Made by a program: the position numbers and the translations under genes. A stretch of DNA of 53,817 nucleotides, the filler included, from Sphacelaria rigidula (lineage: Eukaryota): NCBI GenBank assembly GCA_964200075.2. It is 5 parts of 5 records of this genome, joined end to end, with 100 filler letters (N's around TTAATTAATTAA, not from the genome) between each part and the next. Parts side by side here need not be neighbours in the genome. Positions count along the whole stretch, not along the records: positions 21,569 to 32,252 come from CAXNAA020006087.1; 4 more parts are not named here. One strand, written 5' to 3'. The notes below the pieces were generated by a model. The model worked only from the letters and a program-made list of their open reading frames with translations, did no database searches and had not been told where the DNA came from. Positions 2,530 to 43,135 of this stretch are shown one piece after another; the stretch's first letter is position 1, and each line of letters starts with the position of its first letter.

Positions 2530-4950
2530 CTAGAGATCAGTCGGAGCGCTGCTGCTCTCGTCGGAGGATTGTGACAGAGCCATCCGAGCTAAGGGCTCAA
2601 AAGTACTGCCATGAGCGAAAGACTTCGATGGTGCCCCGAAAAAGCTCGACGTTCTCGATCGCATTGACGACTGTCGTTTACTCCAGTCCACACTTCCGGA
2701 AATCACACTGGACGGTCGGGACTCGGAACGAGAATTTCTATCCACGTTATCGACAACGGTGGGGCGTCGGGGTATCGAGTGCTGGTTCTCAGTGGCGTTC
2801 TCGACAACGCTTGGTCGTCGCCACACCCTTGTGCTCCGGTGCGACGGTGTTTCGGACGGCCGCTGAGGCGACGAGGGCTCGAACGTAGGCGAACCCGCAC
2901 CATTTTCCATCAGGTGCGCTGTTCGGCTCCATGCTACTCTGTTGTTGTTGTTGTCGTCGTCGTTGCACCCATCGTAGTCGACGGTGTCGGTGCGGTGCTT
3001 GTGGCACGTCTTTCTGCCACACACCGCTGCATCCGTGGACGTAGACTGTCGATTGCTCTTGGCCCACAAGTGCTCGTAAAACGTGGTCGCGATGCCGGGG
3101 GTCGATTTTTCACCTGCAGAGGCTGCACCGTCGCTTCTCGCTGCCCCGTTCGAGTAGTTCGCCTCTTGCGTGCTGTCCGTGTGCTTGGGCGTGTGCTCTT
3201 GTCCGTCGGATCTTCTAGTGAAGTCAGTCCGGGCATTTCGGTCGTTGTAATGGGAAACCAACAGCGTGGAACTATGCCCGATCTCATGGACGGATCTGGC
3301 GTTCGCTTCCGACACGGTCCGATGCCCAGAGCTACCACCGGAAGCCGGGGTAGCCGAATGTTGCTCCAAGTGTACGAACTTATCGGCCGCTCTTACTCTA
3401 CGATCACTAGCTGCATTCGGCCCTTGTATATCCCTCGAGATGGTCTCGGGAGCGCATAGTCGCTCCGTCAAAGCGGTGAGCTGTTGCCGGTCCATTGAAG
3501 TATTCTTTTGTTGGGTTATTGAAGAACTATTCTCTTGTCCAACAACATTCAGACTCCCTTCTGTCGCACTCGGCTCGGCCGCAGCCATGACCGCTTCCGG
3601 AGACAAGCACGAACAGGAAACCGGAGCAGAAGGCTTTCTGTGGGGGGGCGGGTAATGTAAGGGTTGTCTTGTATCATGAAGTCCCCCGTCGACACCACCA
3701 TCAGCTAGCCGTCGGTTGGTATCTATGCACTCGCTACCTTCTTCACAGAATGGGAGCACCCTCCAACCACGTGAGAAGGCATCGCCGACTACAAAAATGT
3801 GGTCTTGCAGAAGAAGCTCCTTCTGTTGCCCCAGGTATGGTGAGGGCTCCTGGATCTTCAGGCCAGGTTTCACCAACATTCTCCGACGTAGTTTAGCTTC
3901 AACAGCCGATTCGTGGTACTGTACGGGACCATTCCCAGGTTGTTCCTCCTCACGCACTTGGTGGTACCTCGGAGAACTGCCGCTATGATCTGGCTCGCTC
4001 GACATCACCAGCTCCTGTGCACCACTCTCACCGCTGACGCCATACCCTTCGCCGTCAGCTGAAGCCTTCGTACACATTATATTTCCAATATCTTCGCCGT
4101 TACCCTCCGGGTCGTCCTTTTTAGGTCGGTAGCACAAAAAAGGGCGAGAGAATAAAGCAGATATCAAAATGTCAAGGTGTAACTATTTCGCCAACAAAGC
4201 ACACACAATCAGTTACATCGGCCTCATGCTCCTGCACCGCACTTTCCCCCCCTATTCTTGCTACAAGCATGTACGCCTTCGCCCCCCTGTCCCCCCGCCT
4301 CACCATCATCCATGGACCAAATTGAAGGTGTAACCTTTGAAGCGGTGCTATCGGCTTCAACCAATCACATACCTCCGAGGTATTCCTGGCAGCGGCGGCA
4401 GTTAGGAAGGGAAAGACATCCCCTCTCCTTCGTCGTGGGGAAGGGGGTCTGGTGCAAGTCGTCTCTATAGGTTCACCGCCGATGCTACTTACCTCACTAT
4501 AGCCATGGGTGGGAAGTGTTTCACCAAAATATCCACCAGTATCACCATCAGTATCGCTTTCAGCGCCGTCAATACCGATTTTCGCCAGGGAATAGATGTT
4601 ATTGCCCAAGGGAGGTAGCATGGTGCCCCGACTCATAGCTGTCTGAAAAATTCTGTTGGTGCTTCCGTTTCGATACGGGGGCTTGAGAGGGCGTGGCTCC
4701 TCAACACCGCCATGTAGTCGCCGTCGAACGTACTTCTTCATTGCGCTGAGTGATTCAGGCGATGCTGTCCATCTGCGCCTTCGCCCAGCGAAACGTAATG
4801 TAGTGTCATCACAGTGCCTTGAGCGCTGTACGGAGTGACATCGAGAGTTGAGGTGTAACCCCCTCCCGTCACCCCCGTCGCCGTTGTCGACCGCTGATGT
4901 TCTCTCCTGGACGTTCTTCAGTTCATGTGTTTGCTGCTGTTGCTGCTGCT

Positions 4951-4981
<31 letters not shown>

Positions 4982-4998
4982 TTGTTGTTGCAGCAACA

Positions 4999-5046
<48 letters not shown>

Positions 5047-8000
5047 TCCTGCTCGCAGAAATAGTGGCAGCGGCCTCTGCCATGATTCTCTTCGACCACA
5101 ACTCCCGAACGGGGGCACCCTGGAACCGAAGACCCGCTGCTGCCTCGCTTTTGCCTTCTTCGGGAACACCACCCTCCTCTCCGAGTAAAATGTCTTGTCG
5201 GCTGGTAGTCTCCATCCCCTGTCCTGCGTCGCCCTTACAAGGCCAGTGCCGCGGCGGAGTACGTGCAGTCATCGCTTCCTCAAGATTTTCTCGCGCATAT
5301 GGATTCATTAACGACGCAGATGGAGAGACCATTGTCGCTCCTTCGCCGCGAAGACTCACGCCGTTATCGAAGAATTTAGTATGAGCGGAGAAGCGAAGCG
5401 AGGACCAAAGCGTCGTGATGATCGGAGGTACTTCGGGTGGTGGCGGCATCTGCAGGAGTGCTTGGTGCAAGGGTAGACGCTGATGGTGGGGGCCAGTCGT
5501 ATTCACATAACTAAACCTGATGCTGTGAGGGGTGGCGGCAGTCAGCAGGGTCTGCGGAAAGCTGGCGAGCTCGGCGTCAATCTCTCGAGCAACCGCGTCC
5601 GATGTTGGCATCGTTAAGGGGCGAGAAGCGGGCGAGGAATCGGCCGCTTTGAGACAAATCGCGAAGGAGTCGCCAAGCGCCACCTGTCTTGCGAAACAGG
5701 ACGAGTGTCGGGTACAACCGCACGTGGGCCGGGATGAACTTCAGCTAGACGTTCGGTACTTGAGAAAATACGGAGAAATGGGGACAATGGCGTAGGCTCG
5801 GCTGCGTGAAGCTGCTCTATCAACTCGACGAGCGTACGCATATGCACATATGTTTATGATACATGAATCGAACGAGAGCCGTTCAGCACCACATCGAGTG
5901 GGGTGGGATTCTGCATGAGCCACCCGCTATATTCTGACGGTTGCGTTTTCAGCCGGTGAGTTGAATCGTGAAGCGTACACCATCGTGCATGCATTTGCCT
6001 GCTGGACTCCAAACTTAGACATGAAGGTCGAAACTCGTGGGGTCGCAGGTGCGGGGTTGGTGGGGGATATTCCAAGGCGTCCTCTCGAGTTGCAGCCCCA
6101 GACCAGCAAGACGCCGGTACTTGTCACGGCCGCCGACGTTTCTGCCCCTGCGGCCACCTTTACGACGTCCTGGGTTTCGAGACAAATCGACAGAGGGCAG
6201 CACCCGAGAATGATGGAGCAGTGTCGTGCGATGTCTATTGCGGGACAAAGTAGATCTGTAACGCGCTATTTGACCCATTAGCAGTCCACATCCACTGCTC
6301 AACGTCCCCGTGGCTCAACGATAAACCGAGCGATTTGTCCTCTTCCCGCACAGTATCCTTCGTATTCCGGTCGTTTCAAACGACGGACCTCGTTTCATTC
6401 ACTTGGCATTGGCGCTTCTATCTCCGCCCCCAGAAATATATTAAAAAAAAAACATTTTTGAATGAGTTACGGTTGCGGTCCACCTGCTGCACTTCACACT
6501 CCACCTCAGTGTGTCACCACGGTACCCGAAACGACCAAAAATATTGCGATGACCCAAGAGCAGCAAAATCACATCTACAGTGTCGGGGGGGGCTATGCCT
6601 GCGGCAAACTGCATGGAACAAGCCGCAGTAGTGGTTCTCGAGGGTGCACATTTTCCACATACCTATGAAACGGAAAGTTCAACGGCCATGAAAAACAGGT
6701 TGTGCAACTTCACGGGGGGGGGGAAGACATAAAATGTGCAAGGAGTCATGCAAACGCGGCGTTTTCGGGAGAAAAAAAGTAGCCCTGTTTTTTCATCGCC
6801 TAGAACGGGCCTTAGGAGTCTAGCTGAGATCAGTAGATGATTGAATCTTTTCTGTGGACCAAAATGAACGTATGCCTGAAAAAAATGTTGAAGCGAGAAT
6901 TGGGGGTCACGATTATCTTTTTACATGGTGTTCAGCCAAGGCCTTCACGCGGGCGGGATGCTTCCGGCTGGTGTAGTCTCCTAGCCCCAGTTGCCCCCAT
7001 CGATTGCCACCCCATGCCCACACCAGCCTGTAACGTAACCCATGAGTGGTGGGTCATCAATAAAGATCAGCGCAAAGGAATCCAAGGATTCAGGCGGAGG
7101 TGGGACAAAGCGACCGTTGATGCGCGTGCAGGCGTTCACGCGGGAAAAGCTACCTGCTTGCTCGCGGTGGAACTACCATGTCGAGTAATGCCGACGAAAT
7201 GACACGAGCTGAACCACGGGCGGTCACGCTACGCACAATCTGGAGTGCCGACATGAGGGTTCTAGACAGAGGCTTTCCTATTGAAAGAAACACCAAAATC
7301 CGACTCACAACGAAGCAGGCTGTGCGAAAATCGTGGTGAGTCGTAGCTGCTTTGATACACGGCGCGATGCGCCGGTGCCTCTGCTTCAAGCACCGCGCAT
7401 ACCTGTGCCTTTCGCGCGATCATACTCACGAACGTACCTACTACTCGGTTGTGCTTATATCGGACGTGAGCTGGAGGTCGTTACTTACAAGCGATTCCTT
7501 CAACTACCTGTTCGGCGCCAACGCGAGCGTGTGAAAGCCGCCGCACGCCACCCGCGTCCCTTCCGCACGCGCCCCAGAACCCCCCCATTCCACGCGCCCG
7601 AAGCCGTCGCCACCTTGCCCGGCCCCGCCCACCCAGCGGTCTCCACCGTAACATTGCCTGATATTTGTCGTCGACGACCGTCCGTCCACATTGTTTCTAG
7701 GCGTTCCCGAACTCCGACGTCCACGAAAACGCGCGTCACAGCCGCCTCGGCTGCCACCGCCGCAAACACAAAACACATGACGCTCGGCGGCGTATCTGGT
7801 ACGACGAGCACAACCTTGACGAATATTGCATCTAGTGTCTTCGGTGCAGCTTTCCATGGCGGTACATGTCACGCGACGCGAAGATTGCAGATCCTCGTCT
7901 TTTCCGGGCAGCCGTTGCCTGCTGTTCTCGCTGCGTAAAGCCCGTTTTGCTTCTGCTGCGTCTGCACCCAGAGGGGTGCCAAGGGTCGCGGCCGACATTC

Positions 8001-10421
8001 CACAACAAAATTCCCCATGAAAGAAGTGATTGTGGGCCGGACTGGCGCTTCTGCAGCGTATCCTGCGTGAGCTCCGGCCTACCTCCGGGTCGCGCCTGCG
8101 GCTGCGTGTTGCAGAGCTACCTTTTCTGCCTGAGTGTTGCTTTAGCGGTGGTGATTGTAAACTTCGGCCCAACTGGCCGCTCAGGTTACAGCCGGAGGTG
8201 TATACCGCGCCGAATTTGTCCACGACCGCGGAGTGACGAGCCCCGCAGGATATCTGCGCTTTGGGTCGGACCGGTCCGGACCAGATCGGGGAAGAGGAGA
8301 AGAAGTCGGGGTAGAATATAGTAAATATCGTTGTACCTCCATGTTTGCAAAATAAATTTCACAGCGTTTATAGCTGTATTTGGGTTACGCGGTGTTCTGG
8401 TGGGACGTACATATTTTCGTTCGCATTCATTGAAATTCGGGTACATCGCCCGCTGCGGTTCGGTACATATTACGACGCACATGCGAAGTATCGTCTGATG
8501 TCGGCGGACGTTTCACAGGAACTGGAAGGAGCAGCGTGAGGGCGCCACTATCAACTCCCGCAGAGCTCTGTGGAGCCAGGAAAACATTCTCGCCTACGGC
8601 GCGAACGGCCGCTGCCAGGTGCGTTCTTCATGACCACTGCATGACGTACATGACTGCTGTGGGATCGATTACCGGGGTTATGGCACCGAACGGGGAGCTA
8701 TACCTTATTTTTGGAAAGGGGATTCTGGGCCTTCACTCCATAAGGTCTTGAAAAACTGTAGTATATGATACAGCTGTTGCCGATCATGTGACACACTTTG
8801 CTCAGATACGACGGATGTGTGAGCGTAAACAAAGAACATACGATCGAAATACGACACAATGACATTTTATACTGAAATCTGTACATTTTCCCGTCGGAAC
8901 TGCAAAGTTACTATGATCGTTTGATAATTTCTCCTTTTTATCTTCCGTACTCATGCACTGATTCACGCTCCTGCGCCGGTGACATGGCGATCCTATGGTA
9001 CCGCGTGACAAATATATAACGGTAAAGTGAAAAATCATGATGTTCTGATAATACAAATAGCGCTTATTTCAGTATTATTTTCGAAAGCGGCGTTGTGTGA
9101 CAACGCAGATCCTGCTGGACTGCTGAGTGATGCTACGGTAGGGATCGCACTTTTTCAGCGGAAAAGTTTTCCGGGGCTGCTCGGGGTGTTGGACGGGTCA
9201 TTTTTTGTGAATCGGCATCATTCTACTTGAAAAAGACCGAAAATGATACCGTAGAATGATGCCGATTCACGAAAAGGTCCCTGCGTGTGAATACCATGTT
9301 TCTGGAAGTCCGGCTCCCGGAGATTTGGATTACGCAGTAAGCCCCATATATTTGTGCGCCTACAAGGAGAGCCCCAGAAGCAAAAAGCGCAACCCCTACC
9401 GTAGCATTGCTCTGCTCTACTACATGATAGGCGACAGTACCATACACACCACTCCCTACGAGAGATCCTGACCGCCGCTCGCCGACAACCAGGTGTACGG
9501 TACTATAATGTGAGTACAACTGAATGCACCCACCCATCAAACGTTTAAAGCCGCCCACTCTCATCACTGTCATGTCCCACAAAAGTGGGCGCCATTGTCT
9601 GCGTCGTCTGCTGGCACCGTGCTTACTATCTACTGTCTGCGGTCCGGAGCACCTGTCTAGCCGTTGCTTGAGCGTTTTTTGCTTGTCCGTCTACAGCTGC
9701 CGCTACTGCCTCTGAATTTTCAAATACTTACCGTACAGCGTTGACCATTTTTGTGAAATTTTCAACATTTAGCGTTTTCGTGATACTAATTATTATCCAT
9801 AAACGAGAGGTGACTAATAATCCTGTGGATATGGACCATATACGACATTTTACATGCGCATGTGAGAGATCATTTGAACCTCGAGATTGCCATATGCTAT
9901 GACCGACAGGCGAATCTTCAGCCATAGGATCAGATATCGTGTATTCTTTTATGGAGTGAAGGCCTAGGCGATTCTGGAAGAACCGTCCAAACTAACTGCT
10001 CATCTTACGACCAAAACTTGAGGATATGTTTGCCGTCATTGCTGCGCATTTATTCACAATAGCAAGAGAAAATGTCGATAGTAACATGACGATTACTACC
10101 ATGATCAATAACACTCGATATCATGGCGGCATTGTTGCCATGTACATACACATAATATATCATATTTTTCTCCATTGCTGTGTACAAATTACCATCACAG
10201 TTACAGGACTGATTGCCGTGAAGGTTAATTTCTCAAACATTTTCAAAAACCCTGACGGACGTTCCCACGGAAGCAAGCAAGACGTGTACACGCAAGGCCT
10301 CTCGTGCTCCCGCGTGTGTATGAGCCGTTACCTGAACCACGGGTACCCGCGTCAGGGACATGACATTCTCCGGACGCAGTACCTTCCTGCCCTCTGGCGA
10401 TCTCCTCCCGAGCGACAGTAA
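2530..10421 (-). CDS. RCC1-repeat protein with a long low-complexity, polyQ-containing C-terminus (spliced; 5' end probably beyond the contig end)
   Basis: Proposed exons (minus): 10332-10421 (tentative), 7508-8253, 6925-7027, 5999-6169, 4373 or 4493-5683, 2530-4116. Splicing restores RCC1 blades with compatible phases: VPVVQ|ISCGARHSAVVDKFGAVYTSGCNLSGQLG; VACGGFHTLALAPNR|LVWAWGGNRWGQLGLGD...KALAEHH|DVVKVAAGAETSAAVTSTGVLLVWGCNSRGRLG...GVQQ|VALGDSFAICL. Two alternative phase-0 donors exist for the penultimate exon. Confidence 0.75.
4932..5044 (-). repeat. Coding CAG/CAA microsatellite (polyglutamine, interrupted by LLL)
   Basis: (CTG/TTG)n on the + strand; reads as Q-run-LLL-Q-run in ORF 4172..5683. 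Confidence 0.95.
9131..9406. mobile_element. Small foldback/MITE in an RCC1 intron, containing a fragment of the 44684-44885 MITE family
   Basis: Outer IR tgctacggtagggatcgcacttttt / aaaaagcgcaacccctaccgtagca; inner IR gtgaatcggcatcattctac / gtagaatgatgccgattcac. Confidence 0.65.
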
Positions 10422-10684: not shown

Positions 10685-10784
10685 NNNNNNNNNNNNNNNN
10701 NNNNNNNNNNNNNNNNNNNNNNNNNNNNTTAATTAATTAANNNNNNNNNNNNNNNNNNNNNNNNNNNNNNNNNNNNNNNNNNNN
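10685..10784. other. Artificial contig-joining spacer
   Basis: 44 N + TTAATTAATTAA + 44 N; identical to the three other spacers. Confidence 0.97.
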
Positions 10785-21468: not shown

Positions 21469-21568
21469 NNNNNNNNNNNNNNNNNNNNNNNNNNNNNNNN
21501 NNNNNNNNNNNNTTAATTAATTAANNNNNNNNNNNNNNNNNNNNNNNNNNNNNNNNNNNNNNNNNNNN
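21469..21568. other. Artificial contig-joining spacer
   Basis: 44 N + TTAATTAATTAA + 44 N. Confidence 0.97.
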
Positions 21569-21861
21569 GTTATATGGTGGCTTGAGAATATTATGGGTGT
21601 GGTAGGGGGGGGGGGGGGTAATTCCACGGGAAAAGGGTCCATAGATGTGTCAGATAGCCCAACACACTCGCGGTGCGCTTGCATTTGGGAAAAAACGGTG
21701 TCAAGCAGCAAAAATTAAACGTCATTTTTCGGTGACGAGCGCGTTCGAACAACCGCTGCTGCTTTCAACGACGATTTGAACTCGAATTTTGTCGAAGAAA
21801 TGACCCAAAATATCCCCTCGTCCCCTCCCCCTATCGTAGGATGACTCACCATACGAATTCC

Positions 21862-21923
21862 GGTATCGCCAGGGCAGCTCGGCAACCCGCAATTACTCTA
21901 CTTGCATTACGACAAGCTCAGTG
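21862..21923 (+). pseudogene. Antisense LRR exon copy A1 (internal deletion; start approximate)
   Basis: SPGQLGN---PQLLYLHYDKLSG|gtgagt. Confidence 0.7.
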
Positions 21924-22128
21924 GTGAGTCTCTCGGACAAATTTTTTGCGCATACAATATTGCACGAAAAGCGCGCACTCTCAAACAGGTTCCACAGGTT
22001 CCATGCATGAATCCCGCCGGCGGGGTAGGCGCGTAGGCCATCCAATGTTTTCGAAAGGTGGGTGGGACTTAATTGGGACGCCTATTGCCACAAAGGTCTT
22101 AACCTGTTTGTCTACCCGTTTGCTACGG

Positions 22129-22200
22129 GTCCTGTCCCCCTGGACCTAGGGAACCTCGGGGCCCTTAAGCGACAGGCACTTTGAAATAACGAATCGAGCG
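22129..22200 (+). pseudogene. Antisense LRR exon copy A2 (72 nt; acceptor mutated; one stop)
   Basis: GPVPLDLGNLGALKRQAL*NNESSG|gt; acceptor reads CGG. Confidence 0.85.
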
Positions 22201-22349
22201 GTCTTCTCGACCACAATTTCCGAAACAGTATTCGATACCATATAATATCGGTCTTGCTAGCGCATCGGAACGTATGCCATCACATGCTCACGAAGGGTAA
22301 ACATTCGACAGTTAGTATTACTTCTTCGCCGCTGTGATGCTTTTTCCTG

Positions 22350-22422
22350 GATCCTTTCCTGAGACGCCGGGAGCTCTCAGCGAGTTGTGGACGCATTGAC
22401 TCTTGCAACACGCAGCGTTCAG
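22350..22422 (+). pseudogene. Antisense LRR exon copy A3 (73 nt; inverted paralog of S5)
   Basis: GSFPETPGALSELWTH*L/CNTQRSG|gtaact; acceptor reads CTG; both flanks align to the S5 flanks. Confidence 0.8.
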
Positions 22423-22578
22423 GTAACTTTCGTTTCAGGTGGAGGTTTGGATATCGACTTTTGTCGGCTTCGGGAGCTTGTATCCAACGTACGCACATGT
22501 CCTAGAGAAACAAGATCGTGGTTAGGATTCATCTTGAAATTTGCGCGGGAACCATATCATGTGTACGTAGTACCTCAC

Positions 22579-22650
22579 CGCTTAGCCGGTTTCCCTCAAG
22601 GTAGAGGTACTCCAGTGCTGTGAGGTTTCCAAACTCCGGCGGGATGGAAC
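22579..22650 (-). CDS. Sense LRR exon S8 (72 nt)
   Basis: GSIPPEFGNLTALEYLYLEGNRLS; tgcag| ... |gtgagg. Confidence 0.9.
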
Positions 22651-25600
22651 CTGCAGTAGCGGAAGGAGCATGTGCGATTTCAGGGGGGAAATGATCATGA
22701 TGTCTCCCTCGGTTTCTACAACATTCTTCTCACCGGCACATAGGTGAGTAGGCGGTTACGTTTTCTATAAGCGTGCAATAGGATCGGTTGATGTCACGGA
22801 TTGTTTAACTTTCATGGTGGCTCTGCTCTGCTTGTGCAGGGACCATCCCCAAGGAATTGCAAGCCTTCATTGCGCTCGAGGAGTTTCATCGTTTTGACAA
22901 CGAGCTCACTGGTGACAGGCATGGACCAACAGTGTTTTTTTTCAATTCTGAAATAACGTGTGTCCCGTCCATGCGTTGGCGGGACGCGATCTAAGGAGAT
23001 CGGAAAGCTGTTCCTCGATTTGCACTCACCGGTGAGCTTATTACTCCACAACGACAGCTCTTCCAAGGCACCAAGACTTCCAAGCTCCGCGGGAATAGAA
23101 CCTGAATGTGGCGTAGGCGAGTAGGTAATAATCATGTTTCAAAAATGGATGGTGGGATTCAATGAGGGCGCTTATTTCTACTTAGGTATCAAACCTGTCT
23201 CCCGTTAGCTACAAGTACCATCCCTCCGGAGCTAGGGAAGCTCGGGGCTCTCGAGAGACTGGCGCTTCTGAAAACGAGTTGATCGGTGAGTCTTCTCAAT
23301 TATCTTTGCCAAATAATCGTTGATTTCCATGAAAAATCCGTCCTAGCAACGCGTAGGCGAGCAGGCCACCTGATGTTCCAGACGGTCGGGTGAGACATAC
23401 GTTCTGGGTGTGAGGGAGAAACATCAACTATCTATTCCTCGCTGACACCATGTATATCTCGTTCGCTGTAGGTCCCCATCCCGCCTGAGCTGGGAAACCT
23501 CACAGCACCGGACGGCCTGGAGTTTAGAACAAGTTCAGCGGTGAGCCACTACGAATCCGTGTTACGGTTTCTCACGCAGTGTTCAGGGTACATCCCAATG
23601 ACGGTCTTATTTTCTCTTCAAAAGGTTCTCTGCCCACGCGTAAGTGGGGCACGTGTTTTCAGAAAGCTACGGACAGGACTTCCCACGCTTTGAATTTTGA
23701 ATAACAACCGTAGTCTAAGCACCTCACCAGTAAGCTGGTTATCGCTAAGCCCAAGCGTCCTAAGCTCACTGAGACCTCCCAGCTCCTCGGGGATGACTCC
23801 TGAGAAAGCAGTAAGTATAGCAGCCAAGCATCGGACAGGAGACAACTGCTTGGAAGCTCCTACACAGTGACTTCCTCTGCGTAGGTGGAACACAAGCTCC
23901 AGCAGTCAGCGATAATCAATATCTCAATGTCTGCCAAGAGAAAAACTACCTGAAAGCTGGTTATCGCTGAGCCAAAGCGTCCTCAGCTCGCTGAGAGCCG
24001 CCAGCGCCTCAGGAATGGATCCTGCAAAGAGGATCACAACGGAGATACAAATGAAATGATAACTTTTGAAATAATGACGATATTCGAGTATGCGATGGCC
24101 TACTTGCCTACGCGTAGGCACGTGGGCGAGTAGGCCATCAGATGTTCTAGAAACGTAACCACGACACGACCGATTCCTCTGCTATGACTTGCATATCTGC
24201 AGAACACACCCCGCCGTAGCTAGGCAATCTCAGCGCCTTGGAGCGCCTCAACCCCAGCAAGAACAAGTGAATGCGTGAGTACAAAAGATCAGACAATGAA
24301 TTCATATTCTTGCCACTTCAGTAAAAAAACGACCATTAATCTCGCCGACATCTAGGCAGGAAACGTGTTTTACAGAAACCTACGGACAGCACTTTTCAAG
24401 TCACCACAATCGTCGTCTGAGCATCTCACCGGTAAGCTTGTTGCTGCTGAGCCCAAGCGTCCTCAGCTCACTGAGACCTCCCAACTCCTCGGGGATGGGT
24501 CCTGCGAAAGCAGCACAACGGCCAGAAATCCGGTACGAGACAACCGCTTGCAAGCTTCGAGAACATGTCCTACCCAGTGTTATTATTTTTCGATAATATG
24601 GAGGCGGTGTTTTGGCAACTTAGGCGTGAAGAGAATCCGCACCCCGTGTCAGATGATGCCGAAACTCGGAGAATGTTTAGATTGGTTATCATAGGAAGGT
24701 GTCACAGTCACAACTGCGGCAGGGAAAGTCGCTCATGGTCCGGTCTGCATCGATACGGTGGATAATCACCGTGCGCTGATTTTTGTTTTTTCAACACCCT
24801 GCTGTCTGATGACGATTATAGTGGGTACAGTGTCAGTTGACCACGCTGACTGTGCATGGATCCTGCCGGCCTCATCATCAATCTTCGCCCAGTTATGGAT
24901 TAACGCTCGAAGAAACCCAGCAAACAAGCATCGTTTATGATCCGCTATATATGAGGGTTGGGAGGCGAACGTTTCCGCTCCAAAACGGTCGACTTTCGAA
25001 GATTAAACTCCTGTCGTGCGACCAGTGGGTAGCGCGCCGGGCCCTTGCCGGCTTACCCGGTACTGGAGGCGACATCCCGGTACAGACGGTCCCACCACTA
25101 CCGTCACGGCCGTGCAAACAGGCCGGCAGCCGGAGTGGGCGTTGCACTGGTATTCTTCTAGCATTATCGACTTCGATTATCTCCGCATTGGCTTTCCACG
25201 TGAATATTTCGGTGGTTGCCTCACTTCCACTTCGGCCATATTTTGGCGACAAGCCACGGTCTCACTGCCCAACTTTATATGGGAAATCGCTTGCAATCTA
25301 TCCTGTTACAAAACTCGTAAGTGATGCAGCTTCCTCCACATACGCAATCCGCCCGTGAGGCGAGCTTTTGATGCTGGAAGTGCACACCCCTCTTTCCTTG
25401 ATGATGTCCAGTCTTGGGCTCAGGCAATTGAAACCTCGGAATATGACAGTATCTACTAGAAGGTACATATTCTGCGGCCATCGTGCCTCCATATTATCGA
25501 AAAGGAATAGCACTGCTACCCATCTATGCCGAGGCAGAACACGAATTGAAATTAAACGAGCCTACGGGCAGGATTTTCTAGAATTTGAAACACGACCGTA

Positions 25601-27977
25601 GGCTTCGCATCTCACCGATGAGCTTGTTGTTGCTGAGCGTGAGCGTCCTCAGCTCGCTGAGACCTCCCAGGGTCGCGGGGATGGGTCCTGTGAAAGTAGC
25701 ACAGTGGCCGATCATTGGATATGACACAATCGCTCAAAAGCTCCTCAAGCACGACTACTCACCCGCGCGTGGGTAGAACATGTTTTCCAGAGAAAATAAT
25801 GTCGTAATCAGTTTGATTTCTCACCGGTAAGCTTGTTAAAGCTGAGCAAAAGCTCCCTCAGTTCGCTTAGATATCCCAGTGCCTCGGGGATGGGTCCTTC
25901 GTAAGTAGCATACGGAGACAAACAGGAAATGAGCAACGGATGAGAAGAGCGTACGATCAAAGGTCAAAGGTTCCAAAACACGTATCTCGTCGACGCGTAG
26001 GTGAGTAGGCTAGTAGGCTAGTAGGCTAAGTCAGTTCCCAGAAGCGGAGCAGGACACAACCAGTTTCCTTCGAAATTCCAACAACAGTATGCTTCAGTTT
26101 GACCTGCATGCCTGCAGTACGCCGCAATTGGAATATTTCGGTGCTTGGAGTGCCTCTACCTCAGCTATGACAACTTTAATGGTGAGTGCAGACGAGTAAT
26201 AAATGTTAGGTAGAAAAAACAGGCGGGATGGGACGCAAGCTCTGGAAGCCGGCCAGGATCATTACCTATACGTCCTCTCACGAGAAATTTACCTGTGAGC
26301 TGGTTGTTGTTGAGCCGCAGCTCCTTCAGCTGACTAAGAGCAATCAGCGCCTCAGGGATGGGGCCTGCAAATGCATCACGTCGGTACAAGATGAAAATGA
26401 TGACGTTGACATAACAAGCCCTTCGAGGCCATGTGGTCGCCTACTCCCCTACGTACGCAGGGTGTACGAGGCCACTTCATGTTCCAGAAGCGTAGGCGGG
26501 ACACTATCGATTAAATCCTCCGAATATCAACAACCATATGCGCTGCTTTGACTTGCATGTCTGCAGGGCACATCTGGCTCCAGCAAGGCAACCTCAGCGC
26601 CCTCGAGCTCCTCGACCGCAGAGCTAACGGTTTGATTGGAGTTCGAACAGCAAAATAATAATTTCGACTTTTGTATAAATGAACAAGCATTACAGTAGCA
26701 TGCCAATGGGCTACGAGCTGGGCCAGCCGAGAGTAATTGTGAATCTCGCTCAGGCGACGCACAGCGCGATATTAGGAGTTGGACGCTGAACTTTTGACAG
26801 CAGATTTTCACGATTGAAATGCAGAAGATCGCGTGAGCAGCAAAATGCAAAAAAGCAGTTATGGGCACTTGAAATTTCAGCAAAAAGAAGATAATGTTGT
26901 TAGTCCAGAAAAAAATCGAGAATCTGCAGTTGCTCAGGTGACGTATCAGTGCTTTGGGTGCAGAATGTCTACCTGAAATTTCAGCTCAAGAGTCGTCGAA
27001 TTGGGTCGTGCGTTCAACACTTTCCGTGACGCCGCTGCACCCCTATAAATCAAGTGATGGGAGACTCCAATTATGGAGATCATGAGTTCGAATTCCGACA
27101 GATTCTCTTTTTTTTTCGTCCGTACTTAAGGTTATACATTATATGCAGTACATTTTTTTTCATTTCTTTCTTCATCCAGCGGCGGTGCCGTGTGTCACCA
27201 GGTTGGTCTACACTTCAAAGTGATATGCTTACATCGGGTTCATTCGGGAAACTGGGAAAGCTGTGGTGTGAGCAACTTTCGGCCACTTCTGAGCTGGCCT
27301 AGCTCGTAGGAGTATCTCGAATGATCTTTGAAACGACAATGTCCTTATCCATATTCTTCCGTTGTAGCTCCTAGTTTTAGAACCCCCTCAATGAGAAAGA
27401 TCTGGGCCTAAATGTGCAACCGCTAACGTGGCATGTCTCATCAGAGCCCCCCGAAGTATGCGTTCCCCGAGGTCTTATTTGTATCAGAGAGTTAGTGTGA
27501 GTACAGATGGCGTGTTTAAGGAGAAGGCTACGAGACGAGATTCAAACGACTCGATAAGCTTTGGCGACTGCACCAGTCTCGCACACACCGCGTGCTTGTA
27601 CTGCGGCGACTCAACATACGAGGCGTATTCAGGCGTCGACCACTTGCAGAACGCGGGAACGTACCAAGAAGGCGACGTCGAGGCCAGTTGGAAAACTTCC
27701 AATATCATGAAATAATCGCTTTCCACCAACGAATTCCTGGGGAAGATCACGCAGATAGCAAGGGAGCAGCACGTGATGCCCATACGGTAGGTCGTAAAAT
27801 ACCTTTGAGGTTGTTGTTGCTCAGATCTAGTTCAACCACGCAGCCTTGATTATTGACTTCTACTCCGTAGGAATCCGACAGGTCTTCATTCGTGTCCCAG
27901 TTGTCGTTGCAACACCATTTAGCTCCATCGGTCGATCCATACAGGGTACGCAGTACATCACGACCCGTCGAGGCCAT
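22579..27977 (-). CDS. LRR protein with N-terminal LRR cap and eight 72-nt single-repeat exons; probably the 5' part of a brown-algal LRR-ROCO-type gene (3' part off-contig)
   Basis: Exon 1 27803-27977 plus phase-1 exons 26293-26364, 25825-25896, 25616-25687, 24430-24501, 23950-24021, 23728-23799, 23030-23101 and 22579-22650. All are AG/GT bounded, stop-free and match GxIPxxLxxLxxLxxLxLxxNxLx. No ROC/COR domain is seen in the window, so the ROCO assignment is inferred. Confidence 0.9.
22840..22911 (+). pseudogene. Antisense LRR exon copy A4 (72 nt; open frame; AG/GT intact)
   Basis: gtgcag|GTIPKELQAFIALEEFHRFDNELTG|gtgaca. Confidence 0.9.
23030..23101 (-). CDS. Sense LRR exon S7 (72 nt)
   Basis: GSIPAELGSLGALEELSLWSNKLT; ttcag| ... 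|gtgagt. Confidence 0.9.
23215..23285 (+). pseudogene. Antisense LRR exon copy A5 (71 nt; acceptor CAA)
   Basis: GTIPPELGKLGALERLALL/NELIG|gtgagt; 1-nt deletion. Confidence 0.9.
23472..23540 (+). pseudogene. Antisense LRR exon copy A6 (69 nt; frameshifted; inverted paralog of S8)
   Basis: ctgtag|GP/IPPELGNLTAPDGLEF/NKFSG|gtgagc. Confidence 0.85.
23728..23799 (-). CDS. Sense LRR exon S6 (72 nt)
   Basis: GVIPEELGGLSELRTLGLSDNQLT; ctcag| ... |gtgagg. Confidence 0.9.
23950..24021 (-). CDS. Sense LRR exon S5 (72 nt)
   Basis: GSIPEALAALSELRTLWLSDNQLS; tgcag| ... |gtagtt. Confidence 0.9.
24094..24139. other. Best-preserved palindromic cassette-junction site (putative recombination site)
   Basis: Perfect 14-bp palindrome GCCTACGCGTAGGC (24106-24119) within gatggcctacttgcctacg...cgtgggcgagtaggccatc; degenerate copies occur between nearly all LRR modules. 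Function is inferred. Confidence 0.7.
24203..24274 (+). pseudogene. Antisense LRR exon copy A7 (72 nt; two stops)
   Basis: ctgcag|xHTPP*LGNLSALERLNPSKNK*M|gtgagt. Confidence 0.9.
24430..24501 (-). CDS. Sense LRR exon S4 (72 nt)
   Basis: GPIPEELGGLSELRTLGLSSNKLT; cgcag| ... |gtgaga. Confidence 0.9.
24575..25515. mobile_element. 941-bp non-autonomous DNA transposon in the S3-S4 intron
   Basis: 31-bp TIRs (28/31 identical) starting CAGTG; 5-bp direct repeat CTACC at 24570-24574 and 25516-25520. Confidence 0.85.
25616..25687 (-). CDS. Sense LRR exon S3 (72 nt)
   Basis: GPIPATLGGLSELRTLTLSNNKLI; cacag| ... |gtgaga. Confidence 0.9.
25825..25896 (-). CDS. Sense LRR exon S2 (72 nt)
   Basis: GPIPEALGYLSELRELLLSFNKLT; cgaag| ... 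|gtgaga. Confidence 0.85.
26118..26181 (+). pseudogene. Antisense LRR exon copy A8 (64 nt; deletions)
   Basis: ctgcag|TPQLEYFG/LECLYLSYDNFNG|gtgagt. Confidence 0.75.
26293..26364 (-). CDS. Sense LRR exon S1 (72 nt)
   Basis: GPIPEALIALSQLKELRLNNNQLT; tgcag| ... |gtaaat. Confidence 0.9.
26567..26638 (+). pseudogene. Antisense LRR exon copy A9 (72 nt; donor lost)
   Basis: ctgcag|GHIWLQQGNLSALELLDRRANGLIG|gagttc. Confidence 0.85.
27803..27977 (-). CDS. LRR gene exon 1 (LRR N-cap plus first repeat)
   Basis: MASTGRDVLRTLYGSTDGAKWCCNDNWDTNEDLSDSYGVEVNNQGCVVELDLSNNNLKG; phase-1 donor AAG|gtattt. Confidence 0.9.
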
Positions 27978-29411
27978 TGTGGAGGAACCTGTGGGGGTGT
28001 AGAGAGGGTTGGAAGCATGCGGGCATGCGCCGAGATATTTGTTGGGGCAGCAAACGCAAGAGCAACGTCAAACGAAGGGGGTTTGTTCGTATTTCGGTCA
28101 GTGACAACGATATCTTCCGGGAAATCTGCACAAAATCATGGTCGGATATTTCGTGGAACGTTTCCACTGCAAGTTTCCATGCATAGGAATATTCCGCGGG
28201 AAATACATGTGACCTTCGGGGGACTGGCTTGAGGTTTGTTCCAGTCGTTGTTGCCTAGAGTTATCAACCCCCTGTCAGGTTACTTCTCTTGTTCTCCATC
28301 TTCATGCCGACATTTCTGGGCCATAGGCCCTAGCTATGATGAAAGATGAGTTGTCGAGATCATCATCGATTGTCGAACACGCTGGCGATTTATCGGCAGA
28401 CAGTGCGGATTGGTCATCCCTGCAGCGATTATTAGAGTCAAGGATCTCGTTGGTGCAGAGGGAGGTAGCGCCTCTACTGTACAGGAAGAAAAGCTGAGTT
28501 GACCCTTTGCTGAAGATCGTTAACGCATTGGAGAAACAGCGATCAGGACGTATCCAAGGCGTCGGCTGCGCGAAGTCCTTCGCACCCACGGCGCGCCAGT
28601 GGTTCGTGGGTGCGGAAGGGGTTTCATCCTTGAGCATGTTGTCATATATTATCGACGAAGATCTGGAGTATTATCCAAGCTCAGGCGGGAGATAGGTGGG
28701 GTGGTTGCCTGTGTATGTTTTTCAGCAAATTCTTCAAGTTCGATCAGCAACTGGGTGAGCGGAGTGATTGGGCATTGTACGTGCGGATTGAAGACCCGCC
28801 ATTACTGAGGTTTCAAAGAAGAAGCCTCGGAGCAGCAGTAATCTGATGGGTTTCATGCTGCTAATGTCTTGTGCGGCCGCGCACTTGGTGATATGTTTGG
28901 ATGCTGTAGGTCCTGTACTATAGAGGCTGGTCAGCGGTACATGATGGTAGTAGTGCGCGGTGCTTGTTCATTCCCAAAGCTTATCGAAGCAAGGTGGTGC
29001 ACAGCACGCTTTGATGTGCATTTGCTGGATGCGATTCGCGCGTTTCCCACTTGTGCTGAACGTCATATGGATATGCACCATGCACTTGCCACCAGACTAA
29101 TTCAGATTTATCGGAAAAAACAAATTCTGCGTGCAATGCAGTTATCCCGGCATCAAGCAGTTATTCCGGCGGGGGTAGGTCCTGAACGGTACCAGTCTGT
29201 ACTGTAGAGTGATTGACGGCCCTTGGTACGTGTGCTCATGTCCTGTTTTGGACAGAGCTGTGAACCGAAGTGCTGTTCGAGATCCGGAGCGCTGTTCGAG
29301 ATGCATCTGCCGTTTCCCGACCCACCTGTTATGACTGATGAGTATGCAGTAGTATATACAGAAAAAATGTTGGATACCGCGTTTCCTCGTCAGGCTGAGT
29401 CGTGAGAACAA

Positions 29412-29759
29412 GTGTGTGTGTGTGTGCTGTCGTCCCATCTATTCTGGACGCCGTTCTACACCTTTCGGCACATGTGGGCGCACCAGCCGAAGTCACGCAG
29501 GAGAAAGGCCAACACAGGAGTTTTTTTTTTTTTTTTAGTTCTTCACCTTCCTTATGCGATGCTTGCCTTTATAGTTCATCTGTAGAGGGGTACAGCAGGC
29601 CCTTCCCCTCGTCAACCGTCAAGTCAACTTTCTTATACCCACGACATAGTCGCTCTCCACTGTTGGGCATGGTGTGAACAAAATCCCAGATCGCTCCGAG
29701 ATTTGAACCCACGACCCAATCGTCAGAAGGTTTCGAGGTTACCAATTGAGCCACCGGGG
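29412..29759 (-). mobile_element. tRNA-derived SINE copy
   Basis: Colinear with 16953-17292; A/B boxes and (CA)n tail. Confidence 0.85.
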
Positions 29760-31897
29760 AGAGACATCATGACTCTGCGCGTGTGTCAAATATACCATTA
29801 TTTGCGGAGAAATTGCCTGTTCGCCATTGTGAGAGTACGTTGATGTCCATGTAAGGGCACTGCAATTCCGAATTTGTTTTTGTGAAGTTGCGGAGGTTGA
29901 AGACTTCAAGCGATATATCAATGTGTTGGTCATTCAATACTGCATGCTCCAGTCGAGCTTTTGCTGTGCCAGATCTGATTCTACTCTAGGATTCTCACCC
30001 AGATGATGGTAGCAGACACTACGCAAAATCAGGAGTGGTTGTTTGCTGAGGAAGCTAATTGTATGAATGAGAACCAAGTGATGCGCATGATGGCTGATAC
30101 TCTACACAACGTCGTTTCGTGTTCCCCTTGAGACTGAATTCCCATGAGAAACATGTGTAACTCAGGTGCAACCCTTAAGATGGGGGTACGTACACGTGGG
30201 GTGGTGGTTTTTGGACGGAGGGTGGCCGACGATCAAGCCAAACCTCGGACTGCACGACGCTCTCCCTTGCAATGAGTGAAGGAAGGAGGAGATGAAGCAT
30301 GTTCGTGCAGTAGCCCTTTTTCGCATCGTGTTGGCGGAGGAAGAGATGTAAGCGAAGAAATGGGGTGGTTAGGCTGTTGATGCGAGCTCGTTTGAGACGT
30401 TGGATCGCTGCTCTGACTGCCATCGTGAGAGATGGAACAGGTACAAGTAGGTTTCGCTGTGCTTGTTGTGATTTCTGACTTTCAATATTTTTTTACTGTG
30501 AGGCAATAACGAGTAGTTTGGCTCTGGGATCCTGTTATCATGAGCATCGCAGTGCGTGTCAGCTTATTTCGACGTGGTTTTCTCGCGAACGTTCAGGCGG
30601 ATCCATGTTCCAAAAAATCATGTTCCGAGACAGTGAGATGTAGAGCTTCGAAAGTGCCCATGTACTTGCACTGGTTCAACCCTCGACGCCTGTCTTGTTT
30701 ACGTTATGCAAGTTTGCGCGTGTTGGGCATGAAGAACTCACGCTGTTTATCAGGGGCAAAGTTTTCTTGTAGGGTGCTCACCAGCATGACGTACATTTGC
30801 CTGAGCCGACGTTCAAAACAGGCTGTGGTATTTGATGACACAATGAACACATGAAGGGCACATGGAAATCGCCCTGTTTTTCTTCTGAGGATTAGATTTT
30901 CGTGTTGAGAATGTTGATCGGAATCAGGGGATATGAATGAATCTTCAACTTGCGGAGAAGTGAGTCTGACATATTCTACCGTTTTTTCGTTCGTGCCTGC
31001 CTGTATTTTTTTTATTGTGGCGCCTGCGCTTACTGTGCGTCCTCGATACCCGTCATGAAACAGGGGGGGAATGAGCACTGGAATGAATTTTCCCACAAAA
31101 AGGAGCTGAAAGTTGGACCTTGATGTTCGAGCTCAGCATGTTGGCAATAGTATGATTGCAACAAGACGTGGCGTATCAATGAATTGTGCGAGCGCATACA
31201 TTTCCCGAGCAAGTGTGTTTACGCAGTAATCGTGCCCATCGGTCTACACTCTTCTCCTGGTCCTGCTTGATGCAGGGAATGGGGAGGGAACCTTCCTGAC
31301 GTACCCATGGCCACAAACACGAAATTGATTATGTTGGTTACTTCAAGAGCACAAGAACACACGCACTCACAGTGCTAACGACTCCATCTTTGGCAATTTT
31401 CATGGCTCACCTCCCACAAATAGGGGTGATTCGAAATGAATTCAAAGATTTTCGCGCGAAGCGCGATTATCGCCGAGCGTTTCAAAATAGGCACACTCGG
31501 CAAAACCTGAGGATCCATCTGAGGATCCATCTGAAATCAGGAGAACCATGACATGGGACATGCCCTGTTTCACTGTCCGTGCTGCAGCACAAACACACTC
31601 ACGCCCTCTCTCATGTGCTGTAGCTGTCATTGCGTTGTGTGTGGTGTGTTCAGACCTTTGCGAAGACAGTTTGGTCTCCGCTGGGGGGATGTTTCGAGTT
31701 GCCTTACCCTCACCGCGTTCGTCTTCAAGTAAGGAAAATAATTTTAGTTGGGACGCAGTGCCATCTACACACCGTTGAAACCTTGATGGTCTGTTGGCTG
31801 TTTCGTCTTCCGTCACTCGAGCAAGGCGCTTGCCATACCCATCGTGCTTCTCCTGTACACACGTGGCCATTGGGCTACTCTCAACCGTCTTTCCACA

Positions 31898-32125
31898 CCC
31901 TCTAGAGGCAAAAAAGGCTCTGGAAGCGTATAATCCCTCTGGAGGCTGAAAAGTAAACCCCTCCAGAGGGATTATACGGCCGCTAAAATAGAGGAAAAAC
32001 CAACCGAAGCCTCTCAGGATGGAGGTAGATGGAGCTCCCCTCTGCCCTAGAGGGGTTATTTGCACTTTGTAGGATCCAACACAAACGTATGAAATCCCTC
32101 TGGAGGTCACTAATCCCTCTAGAGG
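31898..32125. repeat. Cluster of CCCTCT(A/G)GAGG-like palindromic motifs
   Basis: About 6-7 copies (ccctctagagg, ccctctggagg, ccctccagagg) near the contig end; probably a transposon subterminal array. Confidence 0.6.
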
Positions 32126-32252
32126 TGTTCAACCCCTGGACCGCGAACAACGTAGTCCATGTGAACCATGCATAATTTTTCACGGTTAGGACAAATTAGA
32201 ATTCATACGAGTCGACTCCTCATGACGCGCAAGCAGTCATGCTGTATAAACC

Positions 32253-32352
32253 NNNNNNNNNNNNNNNNNNNNNNNNNNNNNNNNNNNNNNNNNNNNTTAA
32301 TTAATTAANNNNNNNNNNNNNNNNNNNNNNNNNNNNNNNNNNNNNNNNNNNN
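32253..32352. other. Artificial contig-joining spacer
   Basis: 44 N + TTAATTAATTAA + 44 N. Confidence 0.97.
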
Positions 32353-43035: not shown

Positions 43036-43135
43036 NNNNNNNNNNNNNNNNNNNNNNNNNNNNNNNNNNNNNNNNNNNNTTAATTAATTAANNNNNNNNN
43101 NNNNNNNNNNNNNNNNNNNNNNNNNNNNNNNNNNN
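43036..43135. other. Artificial contig-joining spacer
   Basis: 44 N + TTAATTAATTAA + 44 N. Confidence 0.97.

Follow-up and report, generated by a model that had tools for sequence, protein, structure and literature searches.

A conserved, partly palindromic motif at the cassette boundaries of a leucine-rich repeat exon array in Sphacelaria rigidula: a candidate breakpoint signal for exon shuffling

The locus and its exon cassettes

Here we describe an array of leucine-rich repeat (LRR) exons in the brown alga Sphacelaria rigidula and a short motif, palindromic in its consensus, which is found at the boundaries of the exon cassettes. The window, that is, the whole stretch of DNA analysed (53,817 nucleotides, filler included, assembly GCA_964200075.2), consists of five chunks of ~10.68 kb separated by linkers at 10685-10784, 21469-21568, 32253-32352 and 43036-43135 (runs of N around TTAATTAATTAA), and therefore the continuity of features across the linkers should not be assumed. 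All of the evidence on the motif comes from one locus in the third part of the window (21569-32252, record CAXNAA020006087.1). The layout of this locus is already known from Ectocarpus; what is new here is the conserved motif at the cassette boundaries, which we consider a candidate breakpoint signal for LRR exon shuffling, and no ongoing rearrangement was seen in three samples.

Each 72-nt frame of the whole window was scored against the LRR pattern, and the cassettes were confined to positions 21852-26638. These cassettes form a type I LRR array, built of 72-nt exons and belonging to a minus-strand gene. Two marks of such arrays are present: one GxxPxxLxxxxxLxxLxLxxNxLx pattern per 72-nt exon, and antisense LRR exons within the introns of the LRR domain. 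The gene begins with exon 1 (27803-27977, minus strand), read from the sequence and its translation, with the ATG at 27977, an N-terminal LRR cap and the end ...NNNLK|G followed by GT. Eight intact cassettes lie on the minus strand: E15 (26293-26364, PIPEALIALSQLKELRLNNNQLT), E13 (25825-25896), E12 (25616-25687), E11 (24430-24501), E9 (23950-24021), E8 (23728-23799), E5 (23030-23101) and E3 (22579-22650). All eight are open exons of 72 nt with AG and GT splice sites, agreeing with the LRR pattern in 11-12 of 13 positions; E5 is without its acceptor-side arm and lies 10 nt from the arm of E6. Each exon is made up of 2 nt, 23 codons and 1 nt, and exon 1 leaves a single nucleotide (1 nt) of a codon at its end, a phase compatible with the 72-nt exons. 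All introns are thus of one phase, which means that exons can be gained, lost or swapped.

Nine further cassettes are located on the plus strand, between the minus-strand exons. E4 (22840-22911) is intact, the only one with an open 72-nt frame together with AG and GT, and E7 (23472-23540) is open but 3 nt short (69 nt), the LRR consensus being gone at its 3' end. The other seven are broken by stop codons, frameshifts or lost splice sites: E1 (21852-21923) has had its acceptor side removed by a high-copy repeat; E2 (22129-22200) and E2b (22351-22422) each carry a stop codon and are without an AG acceptor; E6 (23215-23285, 71 nt) has a stop codon and CAA in the acceptor position; E10 (24203-24274) has two stop codons; E14 (26118-26181, 64 nt) is shifted in frame; and E16 (26567-26638) is without a GT donor. 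In its present state the array appears to be fixed, the eight minus-strand exons making up the gene and the plus-strand copies decaying within its introns. Hereafter the strand of a cassette is given by its sign (E3-, E4+).

Presence and enrichment of the motif

The original prediction described a recurring palindromic core between nearly all cassettes, and all 15 of the strings it listed are present where it placed them. The palindrome is real but was overstated, and the observation is partly confirmed. With up to two mismatches, CCTACGCGTAGG is found seven times in the window against an expectation of 1.15 (maximum 4 in 100 shuffles); six of these matches lie inside the 4.9-kb array, including one at 25561 that had not been listed, and one lies outside it, at 35197. 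The best ungapped 12-mer match to CCTACGCGTAGG was also scored in each of the 16 inter-exon intervals. At least 10 of 12 positions agree in six intervals (shuffles, mean 0.04, maximum 1 in 500; other intervals of the window, 0.06, maximum 1), and at least 9 of 12 agree in eight, where 0.5-0.7 are expected (shuffles 0.54, maximum 3; overall maximum 3-4). Two of these eight matches, at 25561 (E11/E12) and 26485 (E15/E16), are not at the predicted position. In the remaining eight intervals the best match is 7-8 of 12, the chance level for the core alone, and therefore the claim of a core at nearly every junction holds only if homology of the flanks is also counted. In an unbiased count of 8-mers with up to one mismatch, TGCGTAGG ranks first, being present in 12 of the 16 intervals, whereas the top 8-mer of shuffled sequence reaches a mean of 8.8 and a maximum of 10 (200 shuffles). 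Considering the enrichment of CCTACGCGTAGG and this ranking, the motif is real and array-specific.

Departures from the core are most often CG>CA or CG>TG, although CpG is not depleted (observed/expected ratio 0.97 for the window, 0.92 for the array). Rfam gave no match at E values up to 1 on 21569-28100, so the block belongs to no known RNA family there. A scan of metagenomes with the exon 1 protein gave one unrelated locus (GC 36%, without LRR cassettes). The pattern ACGCGTAGGYGAGTAGGC was found in no stretch of viral contigs and in nine single matches in prokaryote genomes (bacterial and archaeal metagenome-assembled genomes), which we take as chance.

Anatomy of the centre and its arms

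The arms of each junction were stacked outward from its centre. The consensus of the centre is CCTACG|CGTAGG around ACGCGT; this consensus is palindromic and one copy is perfect, but the individual cores are palindromic mainly at the level of the consensus. The unit from one motif centre to the next is ~235 nt long (228-245 nt in 13 of 17). On the acceptor side the arm reads CGTAGG-YGAGTAGG-CC.., often followed by ATGTTCCAGAA, and its first 16 nt are two tandem octamers of the form NGTAGGYN. The number of octamers varies between cassettes from two to four, with three in E10+ (24113-24136) and four in E14+, where the expanded second octamer is detected by TRF as a microsatellite (AGTAGGCT x3.1, 26004-26028). 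No other intron sequence is as well conserved as the acceptor-side half, CGTAGGYGAGTAGG. With up to one mismatch it occurs seven times in the window, never outside the array, and every copy has the same strand as the exon towards whose acceptor it is turned. In all 15 acceptor arms that could be scored the start is homologous, whether a donor or an acceptor arm lies across the centre, and the hexamer letters C, G, T, A, G and G are kept in 13, 11, 11, 11, 15 and 13 of these arms. The donor-side arms also begin with CGTRGG.

The proposed extensions of the two arms hold in part. Eight of 16 acceptor-side arms and none of 16 donor-side arms lie within two edits of CGAGTAGGCC, but the other eight acceptor-side arms fall outside this distance. 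The donor extension YRGRACRTGTTTT is found within two edits in four of 16 donor arms, but also in two of 16 acceptor arms (E11- and E13-), and it describes a subfamily feature and not an arm type. The statement that arm type follows exon orientation is borne out by 26 of 32 arms under crude typing. Two exceptions that had been pointed out are both real: the arm on the left side of 25990 is donor-like, and the site separating E14+ from E15- is poor. The long palindrome at 24094-24139 (19-bp stem, 8-nt loop, z -5.5) was found as well.

Eight centres were folded as DNA. Strong folding was limited to J10 (z -5.5) and J5 (z -4.0), with z from -2.6 to +0.4 for the remaining six, and a hairpin general to all centres was therefore rejected. 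A longer palindrome of the native intron, with ACATGTT..CAGAA shared by the two arm types, was marginal, with an observed value of 5 that was reached by 11 of 200 shuffles. A recursive or decoy 5' splice site (AG|GTRAGT) was also rejected: the T it needs is C in seven acceptor arms, T in four and another base in the rest of the 15.

The junctions between cassettes

Junctions are numbered J1 to J16 along the plus strand. Neighbouring cassettes of the same orientation meet in direct junctions. On the plus strand these are J1 (22017-22029, CCGGCG-G-GGTAGG, with one extra base), which joins the donor side of E1+ to the acceptor side of E2+; J2 (22257-22268, CTAGCG|CATCGG, 7/12), which joins E2+ to E2b+; and J7 (23346-23357, GCAACG|CGTAGG, 10/12), which joins E6+ to E7+. 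On the minus strand they are J9 (23874-23885, CCTCTG|CGTAGG, 10/12) from E9- to E8-; J12 (25523-25534, TCTATG|CCGAGG, 8/12) from E12- to E11-, where the arm of E11- is split by a transposon at 24575-25515; and J13 (25762-25773, CCCGCG|CGTGGG, 9/12) from E13- to E12-.

Cassettes of opposite orientation meet head-to-head at J4 (22733-22744, CCGGCA|CATAGG, E3-/E4+), at J10 (24094-24139, E9-/E10+), at J14 (25990-26028, E13-/E14+) and at J16 (26448-26461, CCTACG-TA-CGCAGG, E15-/E16+), the last with two extra bases. J10 contains the perfect core at 24107-24118, and 24094-24112 pairs with 24121-24139. J14 has TCGACG|CGTAGG (10/12) followed by the octamer run of E14+, and its E13- arm is donor-like. 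The tail-to-tail junctions are J3 (22485-22496, ..CCAACGTACG|CACATG, E2b+/E3-), where the donor arm of E3- lacks ~11 nt beside the centre; J5 (22968-22979, TCCATG|CGTTGG, E4+/E5-), which forms the second strong DNA hairpin; J8 (23633-23644, CCCACG|CGTAAG, 10/12, E7+/E8-); J11 (24345-24356, CCGACA|TCTAGG, 8/12, E10+/E11-); and J15 (26218-26229, centre 26223|26224, E14+/E15-), where the arm of E15- is complete and the donor arm of E14+ is missing (~16 nt by comparison with E10+). J6 (23112-23125, plus strand) is a half site, in which the acceptor region of E5- is followed at once by the E6+ arm, CGTAGGCGAGTAGG (14/14).

The joints are often imperfect. J1 carries one extra base and J16 two, and at J3, J6 and J15 one arm is full up to the centre and the other is shortened from the centre by ~11, ~95 and ~16 nt, respectively. 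The joint precision expected of conservative recombination sites therefore fails at J1, J3, J6, J15 and J16, although later mutation is possible. In run X4, which comes from another study and carries the label 'algae metagenome', A>G at 22740 turns the CATAGG of J4 into the canonical CGTAGG, and A>C at 23127 shifts the E6+ arm towards the consensus; the motif is thus polymorphic, and the reference holds off-consensus alleles.

Conservation of the block

Fourteen of the 17 units were aligned, E1+, E5- and E16+ being excluded as cut or without a second centre. The first ten columns have a mean pairwise identity of 0.67, equal to the best exon block, whereas other intron windows range from 0.29 to 0.45 and the last ten columns reach 0.46. 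Since the centres had been placed by means of the hexamer, columns 7-14 from the centre (CGAGTAGG) were scored separately, and their identity to the leave-one-out consensus is 0.75; in comparison windows of 8 columns, 97 intron windows have a mean of 0.38 (maximum 0.61) and exon windows a mean of 0.64. In the non-coding plus-strand cassettes the 14-mer CGTAGGYGAGTAGG scores 0.84 against 0.56 for their own exons; for the minus-strand cassettes the corresponding figures are 0.69 and 0.73. The motif thus exceeds in conservation both the remaining intron and, in the non-coding copies, the decayed exons. The block is kept equally on both strands relative to the gene, independently of coding, which argues against a role in the sense-strand RNA and against plain neutral descent.

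Orientation switches, descent and age

The motif centre is the point at which oppositely oriented cassettes meet, and the arms travel together with their own exon, both as predicted; where such cassettes meet, longer head-to-head and tail-to-tail palindromes result. The inverted homology between E2b+ (22261-22495) and E9- (24114-23878) stops no more than 2 nt from the centres at both ends, with 70% identity inside and 54% and 60% outside. On the tree of units at least four changes of orientation are needed, three of which are forced by the starred branches, and there are two supported sister pairs of mixed orientation, E3-/E7+ (96/90) and E2b+/E9- (90/82).

There is a match of 902 nt between the blocks E8-E9-E10-E11 and E12-E13-E14-E15, and another match between E9-E10 and E15-E16. 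Therefore J10, J14 and J16 are one junction by descent, and J11 and J15 likewise; much of the recurrence of the motif is inherited through duplication of multi-cassette blocks. The direct junctions, which are made by no inversion, also keep the palindromic consensus (CC.ACG on the left and CGTAGG on the right), and hence the breakpoints coincide with a short palindrome that existed before them. Considering that seven of nine plus-strand cassettes are broken and that cassette branch lengths are 0.09-0.87 changes per site, the rearrangements are old.

Copy number and variation among samples

The read depth of the array is single-copy (~66 in run X1), whereas the neighbouring repeats reach 10^3 to 3x10^5 at 90% likeness, the high-copy stretches by depth being 21570-21848, 24580-25650 and 26712-27375. 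At this likeness the motif is not a high-copy repeat such as a miniature inverted-repeat transposable element (MITE) scattered over the genome. Contigs of X1 and X3 are identical to the window and possibly originate from the source sample. Those of X4 are collinear with it over 21821-24134, where 14 letters and a 9-nt gap differ over 2,305 nt, and also over 24105-24584 and 25484-26766. No alternative arrangement was seen in the contigs of these three samples (two studies), which drop rare variants, and among the 15 joints listed none is at a core.

The high-copy transposon at 24575-25515 lies in the intron between E11- and E12-, where it interrupts the E11- acceptor arm. Its terminal inverted repeats (TIRs; CAGTG...) are 31 nt long and 90% identical, and it is flanked by a 5-bp target duplication, CTACC (24570-24574 and 25516-25520). 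It landed in the second GTAGG octamer, 9-14 nt from the centre of J12, and its summed depth reaches ~4x10^4. The units contrast with this true insertion, and a MITE-like TIR element was rejected for them: their terminal symmetry is 6-9 nt, supplied by the core, and they abut without flanking direct repeats.

The high-copy repeat at 21570-21848 adjoins the array, and E1+ has lost its acceptor side to it. In X1, X3 and X4 there are contigs that link 21847/8 with 26710/12, the shorter side of the joint spanning just 21-22 letters; their probable source is other copies of the two repeat families, in a nested arrangement. Excision of the array through this joint was set aside, the short overlap linking two high-copy repeats.

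Origin of the motif

The motif is best read as the conserved intron centre of a duplicated LRR exon-plus-intron unit of type I with a 72-nt exon. As to its role, we favour an old hotspot of breakage and joining at a short intron palindrome, acting through general replication and repair and later spread by block duplication, although we would place this reading slightly short of an even chance. The short palindrome would have been the preferred place for DNA breakage and rejoining in a few old inversions or inverted duplications of cassettes, by fold-back priming, by template switching of the strand at palindromic microhomology, or by error-prone end joining; a dedicated recombinase would be a less likely agent than general replication or repair. 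Duplication of multi-cassette blocks and unequal crossing-over may then have carried the junctions along the array. The imprecise joints, with extra bases at J1 and J16 and loss of arm at J3, J6 and J15, fit error-prone joining.

Several points weigh against this reading. Only a single locus was studied, and the centres were placed by matching CGTAGG, so that the conservation of the hexamer is partly built in. The donor half reaches 0.67 and 0.62, little above the intron background (maximum 0.61). A palindrome of 12 nt is short for hairpin-driven breakage, and no consistent hairpin is formed at the direct junctions (z -0.1, -2.6 and -1.8) or at two of the tail-to-tail junctions (z +0.4 and +0.1). 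Indels are frequent throughout the arms, and the three truncations that touch a centre are not clearly beyond chance. The conserved, non-palindromic GAGTAGG octamers are not explained by fold-back or template switching and point to recognition by a protein or to another function, which keeps models of protein recognition alive. Moreover, junctions at the same positions could have been inherited from one ancestral inversion, with later homologous recombination between cassettes in inverted orientation.

This last point leads to a passive origin, which is possible but rather less probable: a single ancestral mid-intron inversion would have been followed by block duplication and homologous recombination, and the conservation of the motif would have some unrelated cause, such as protein binding, a regulatory function or local gene conversion, or would be only apparent. 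Multi-cassette block duplications are demonstrable, and J10/J14/J16 and J11/J15 are related by descent; half of the 16 cores are at chance level when taken alone, hairpins are not consistent, and the outer motif shared by the arm types is marginal (equalled by 11 of 200 shuffles). However, the direct junctions, in which no inversion is involved, are still palindromic in consensus (CC.ACG / CGTAGG). The conservation of GAGTAGG exceeds that of every intron window, and that of the exon in decaying copies, which is unexpected under neutral descent, and the equal preservation of the motif on both strands relative to the gene speaks against a sense-strand RNA role.

The original prediction took the core for a candidate recombination site whose symmetry would permit both inversion and excision. 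In the corresponding model, a dedicated site-specific recombinase would act at the core as its crossover site, inverting and excising LRR cassettes and so varying the receptor in a programmed way. We consider this unlikely. On the one hand, the orientation switches sit at the palindromic centre and arms follow their exon, the flanking block is conserved at least as well as the exons independently of coding, the acceptor arm is composed of iterated octamers, a typical layout of protein-binding arrays, and the available text of the Ectocarpus study (PMC3341825) leaves open the mechanism of a shuffling that is restricted to type I LRR exons. On the other hand, no recombinase or transposase was found by Pfam among 68 open reading frames (ORFs) of at least 120 aa, a search limited to the window. 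The three samples are collinear, with no alternative arrangement and, among the 15 joints listed, none at a core (the contigs drop rare variants); seven of nine plus-strand cassettes are broken; the divergence of cassettes is large; the joints are imprecise at J1, J3, J6, J15 and J16; and just 6 of 16 sites reach 10/12 or better. According to the 2024 follow-up (PMC11378527), there has been no report of somatic recombinant loci or of site-specific recombinases. It is likewise unlikely that the ~28-nt block GTGTYCCACCTACG|CGTAGGYGAGTAGG serves as the recognition and crossover signal of a dedicated system that would flip, excise and insert brown-algal LRR cassettes.

The least probable account sees in the unit a small non-autonomous mobile element, or a descendant of one, with the ends CGTAGG.../...CCTACG, which carried an exon with its splice sites and inserted preferentially at the junctions of earlier copies. 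In its favour, conservation is higher at the ends than in the interior, the exon carried by non-coding copies included; unit length is uniform, both orientations are present, the complete unit end at J6 adjoins unrelated sequence, and PMC3341825 reports LRR fragments inserted from other scaffolds. Against it, no target-site duplication is seen, most centres being places of direct contact between units, the inverted repeat at the ends measures just 6-9 nt, the array is single-copy in depth at 90% likeness where true repeats nearby reach 10^3 to 10^5, the 14-mer (up to one mismatch) is absent from the other ~49 kb of the window, and the same study confines non-coding LRRs to LRR-domain introns, its first observations lending no support to transposable elements.

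Comparison with known systems

The closest system is that of Ectocarpus (Zambounis et al., 2012; PMC3341825). It has one LRR per 72-nt exon (GxxPxxLxxxxxLxxLxLxxN). In the introns of its LRR domain, the non-coding strand carries related LRR exons that are either intact or inactivated, and part of these antisense copies retain splice sites; targeted recombination is proposed in that study, with the mechanism left open. It also reports five LRR-kinase loci with type I exons, as well as type II arrays, in none of which exons are reshuffled. The present locus shares the 72-nt LRR exons and the antisense intronic copies, some with splice sites. It differs in that a conserved mid-intron block marks the unit boundaries, whereas no sequence signal is named in PMC3341825, in which neither 'palindrom' nor 'inverted' occurs (0 times each). 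The available portion of PMC11378527 likewise names no motif and makes no mention of a palindrome, and full-text searching for such a motif found no further report. The downstream ROC-COR part of a ROCO gene is not visible here: Pfam found no ROC domain in the 68 ORFs of the window, and the array ends at a repeat (21848) and at the chunk border (21569).

In Tetrahymena, arrays of 90-bp LRR exons form huge families in which the exons are fixed in length and the introns are of the same phase, shuffled as exon-plus-intron units, and the accessible text (PMC6564038) proposes ectopic recombination and implicates a LINE-like retrotransposon; antisense cassettes or a palindromic intron centre are not described there. 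The legend of figure 5 in PMC3341825 names V(D)J recombination and the lamprey VLR as analogies, and its available text gives RAG1/2 as absent from Ectocarpus. With these systems the locus shares receptor diversity built from cassettes (LRR cassettes in lamprey), and fused signal ends likewise form a head-to-head palindrome; however, the array is without the heptamer-spacer-nonamer layout, and nothing here points to somatic events.

Two further kinds of system invite comparison. The sites loxP, FRT, hix/gix and the shufflon sfx are the targets of conservative site-specific recombinases. The motif resembles them, at least in its consensus, as a short site with inverted symmetry about a central point that recurs between invertible segments, and a symmetric centre would permit both inversion and excision; in contrast, here no recombinase was found and no alternative orientations were observed, and the array has imprecise joints, degenerate sites and asymmetric arms. 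Fold-back and template switching at short inverted repeats are known from the formation of the Tetrahymena rDNA palindrome and from fold-back inversions in yeast and tumours. In these cases, as here, a short palindrome is central to larger inverted duplications, junctions are imprecise and no dedicated enzyme is needed. However, they are single events at a break, whereas in the array the same position recurs and the adjacent non-palindromic sequence is conserved.

A boundary motif turns the unexplained shuffling of LRR exons into a concretely testable question. If the core were a recombinase site, it would supply the mechanism missing from the exon shuffling described in 2012 and would be a functional analogue of recombination signal sequences outside animals. 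If it is merely a hotspot of breakage, it would still account for antisense cassettes that are present as whole units with their splice sites kept.

Other features of the window

The product of exon 1 is 58 aa long, with the N-terminal cap and NWDT..GV.VN motifs. A word-based search among longer proteins found no relatives of it, which is weak evidence. Run X5, guessed to be RNA, gave contigs over exon 1 whose loose ends resemble the start of an LRR exon that is absent from the array, and these contigs may originate from a paralogue. Bins of X5 over plus-strand-only parts lack cover, but this does not serve as evidence. Intron 1 of the LRR gene contains a MITE-like element (26712-27308) with 16-nt TIRs (TACGAGCTGGGCCAGC / TACGAGCTAGGCCAGC, 15 of 16 positions identical) and a summed depth of up to ~3x10^5. 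Elsewhere in the window, minus-strand ORFs at 4175-5740 and 7507-8358 match TFIIA alpha/beta (E 3.7e-9) and RCC1 repeats (E 5.7e-8), the sole Pfam family matches among the 68 ORFs.

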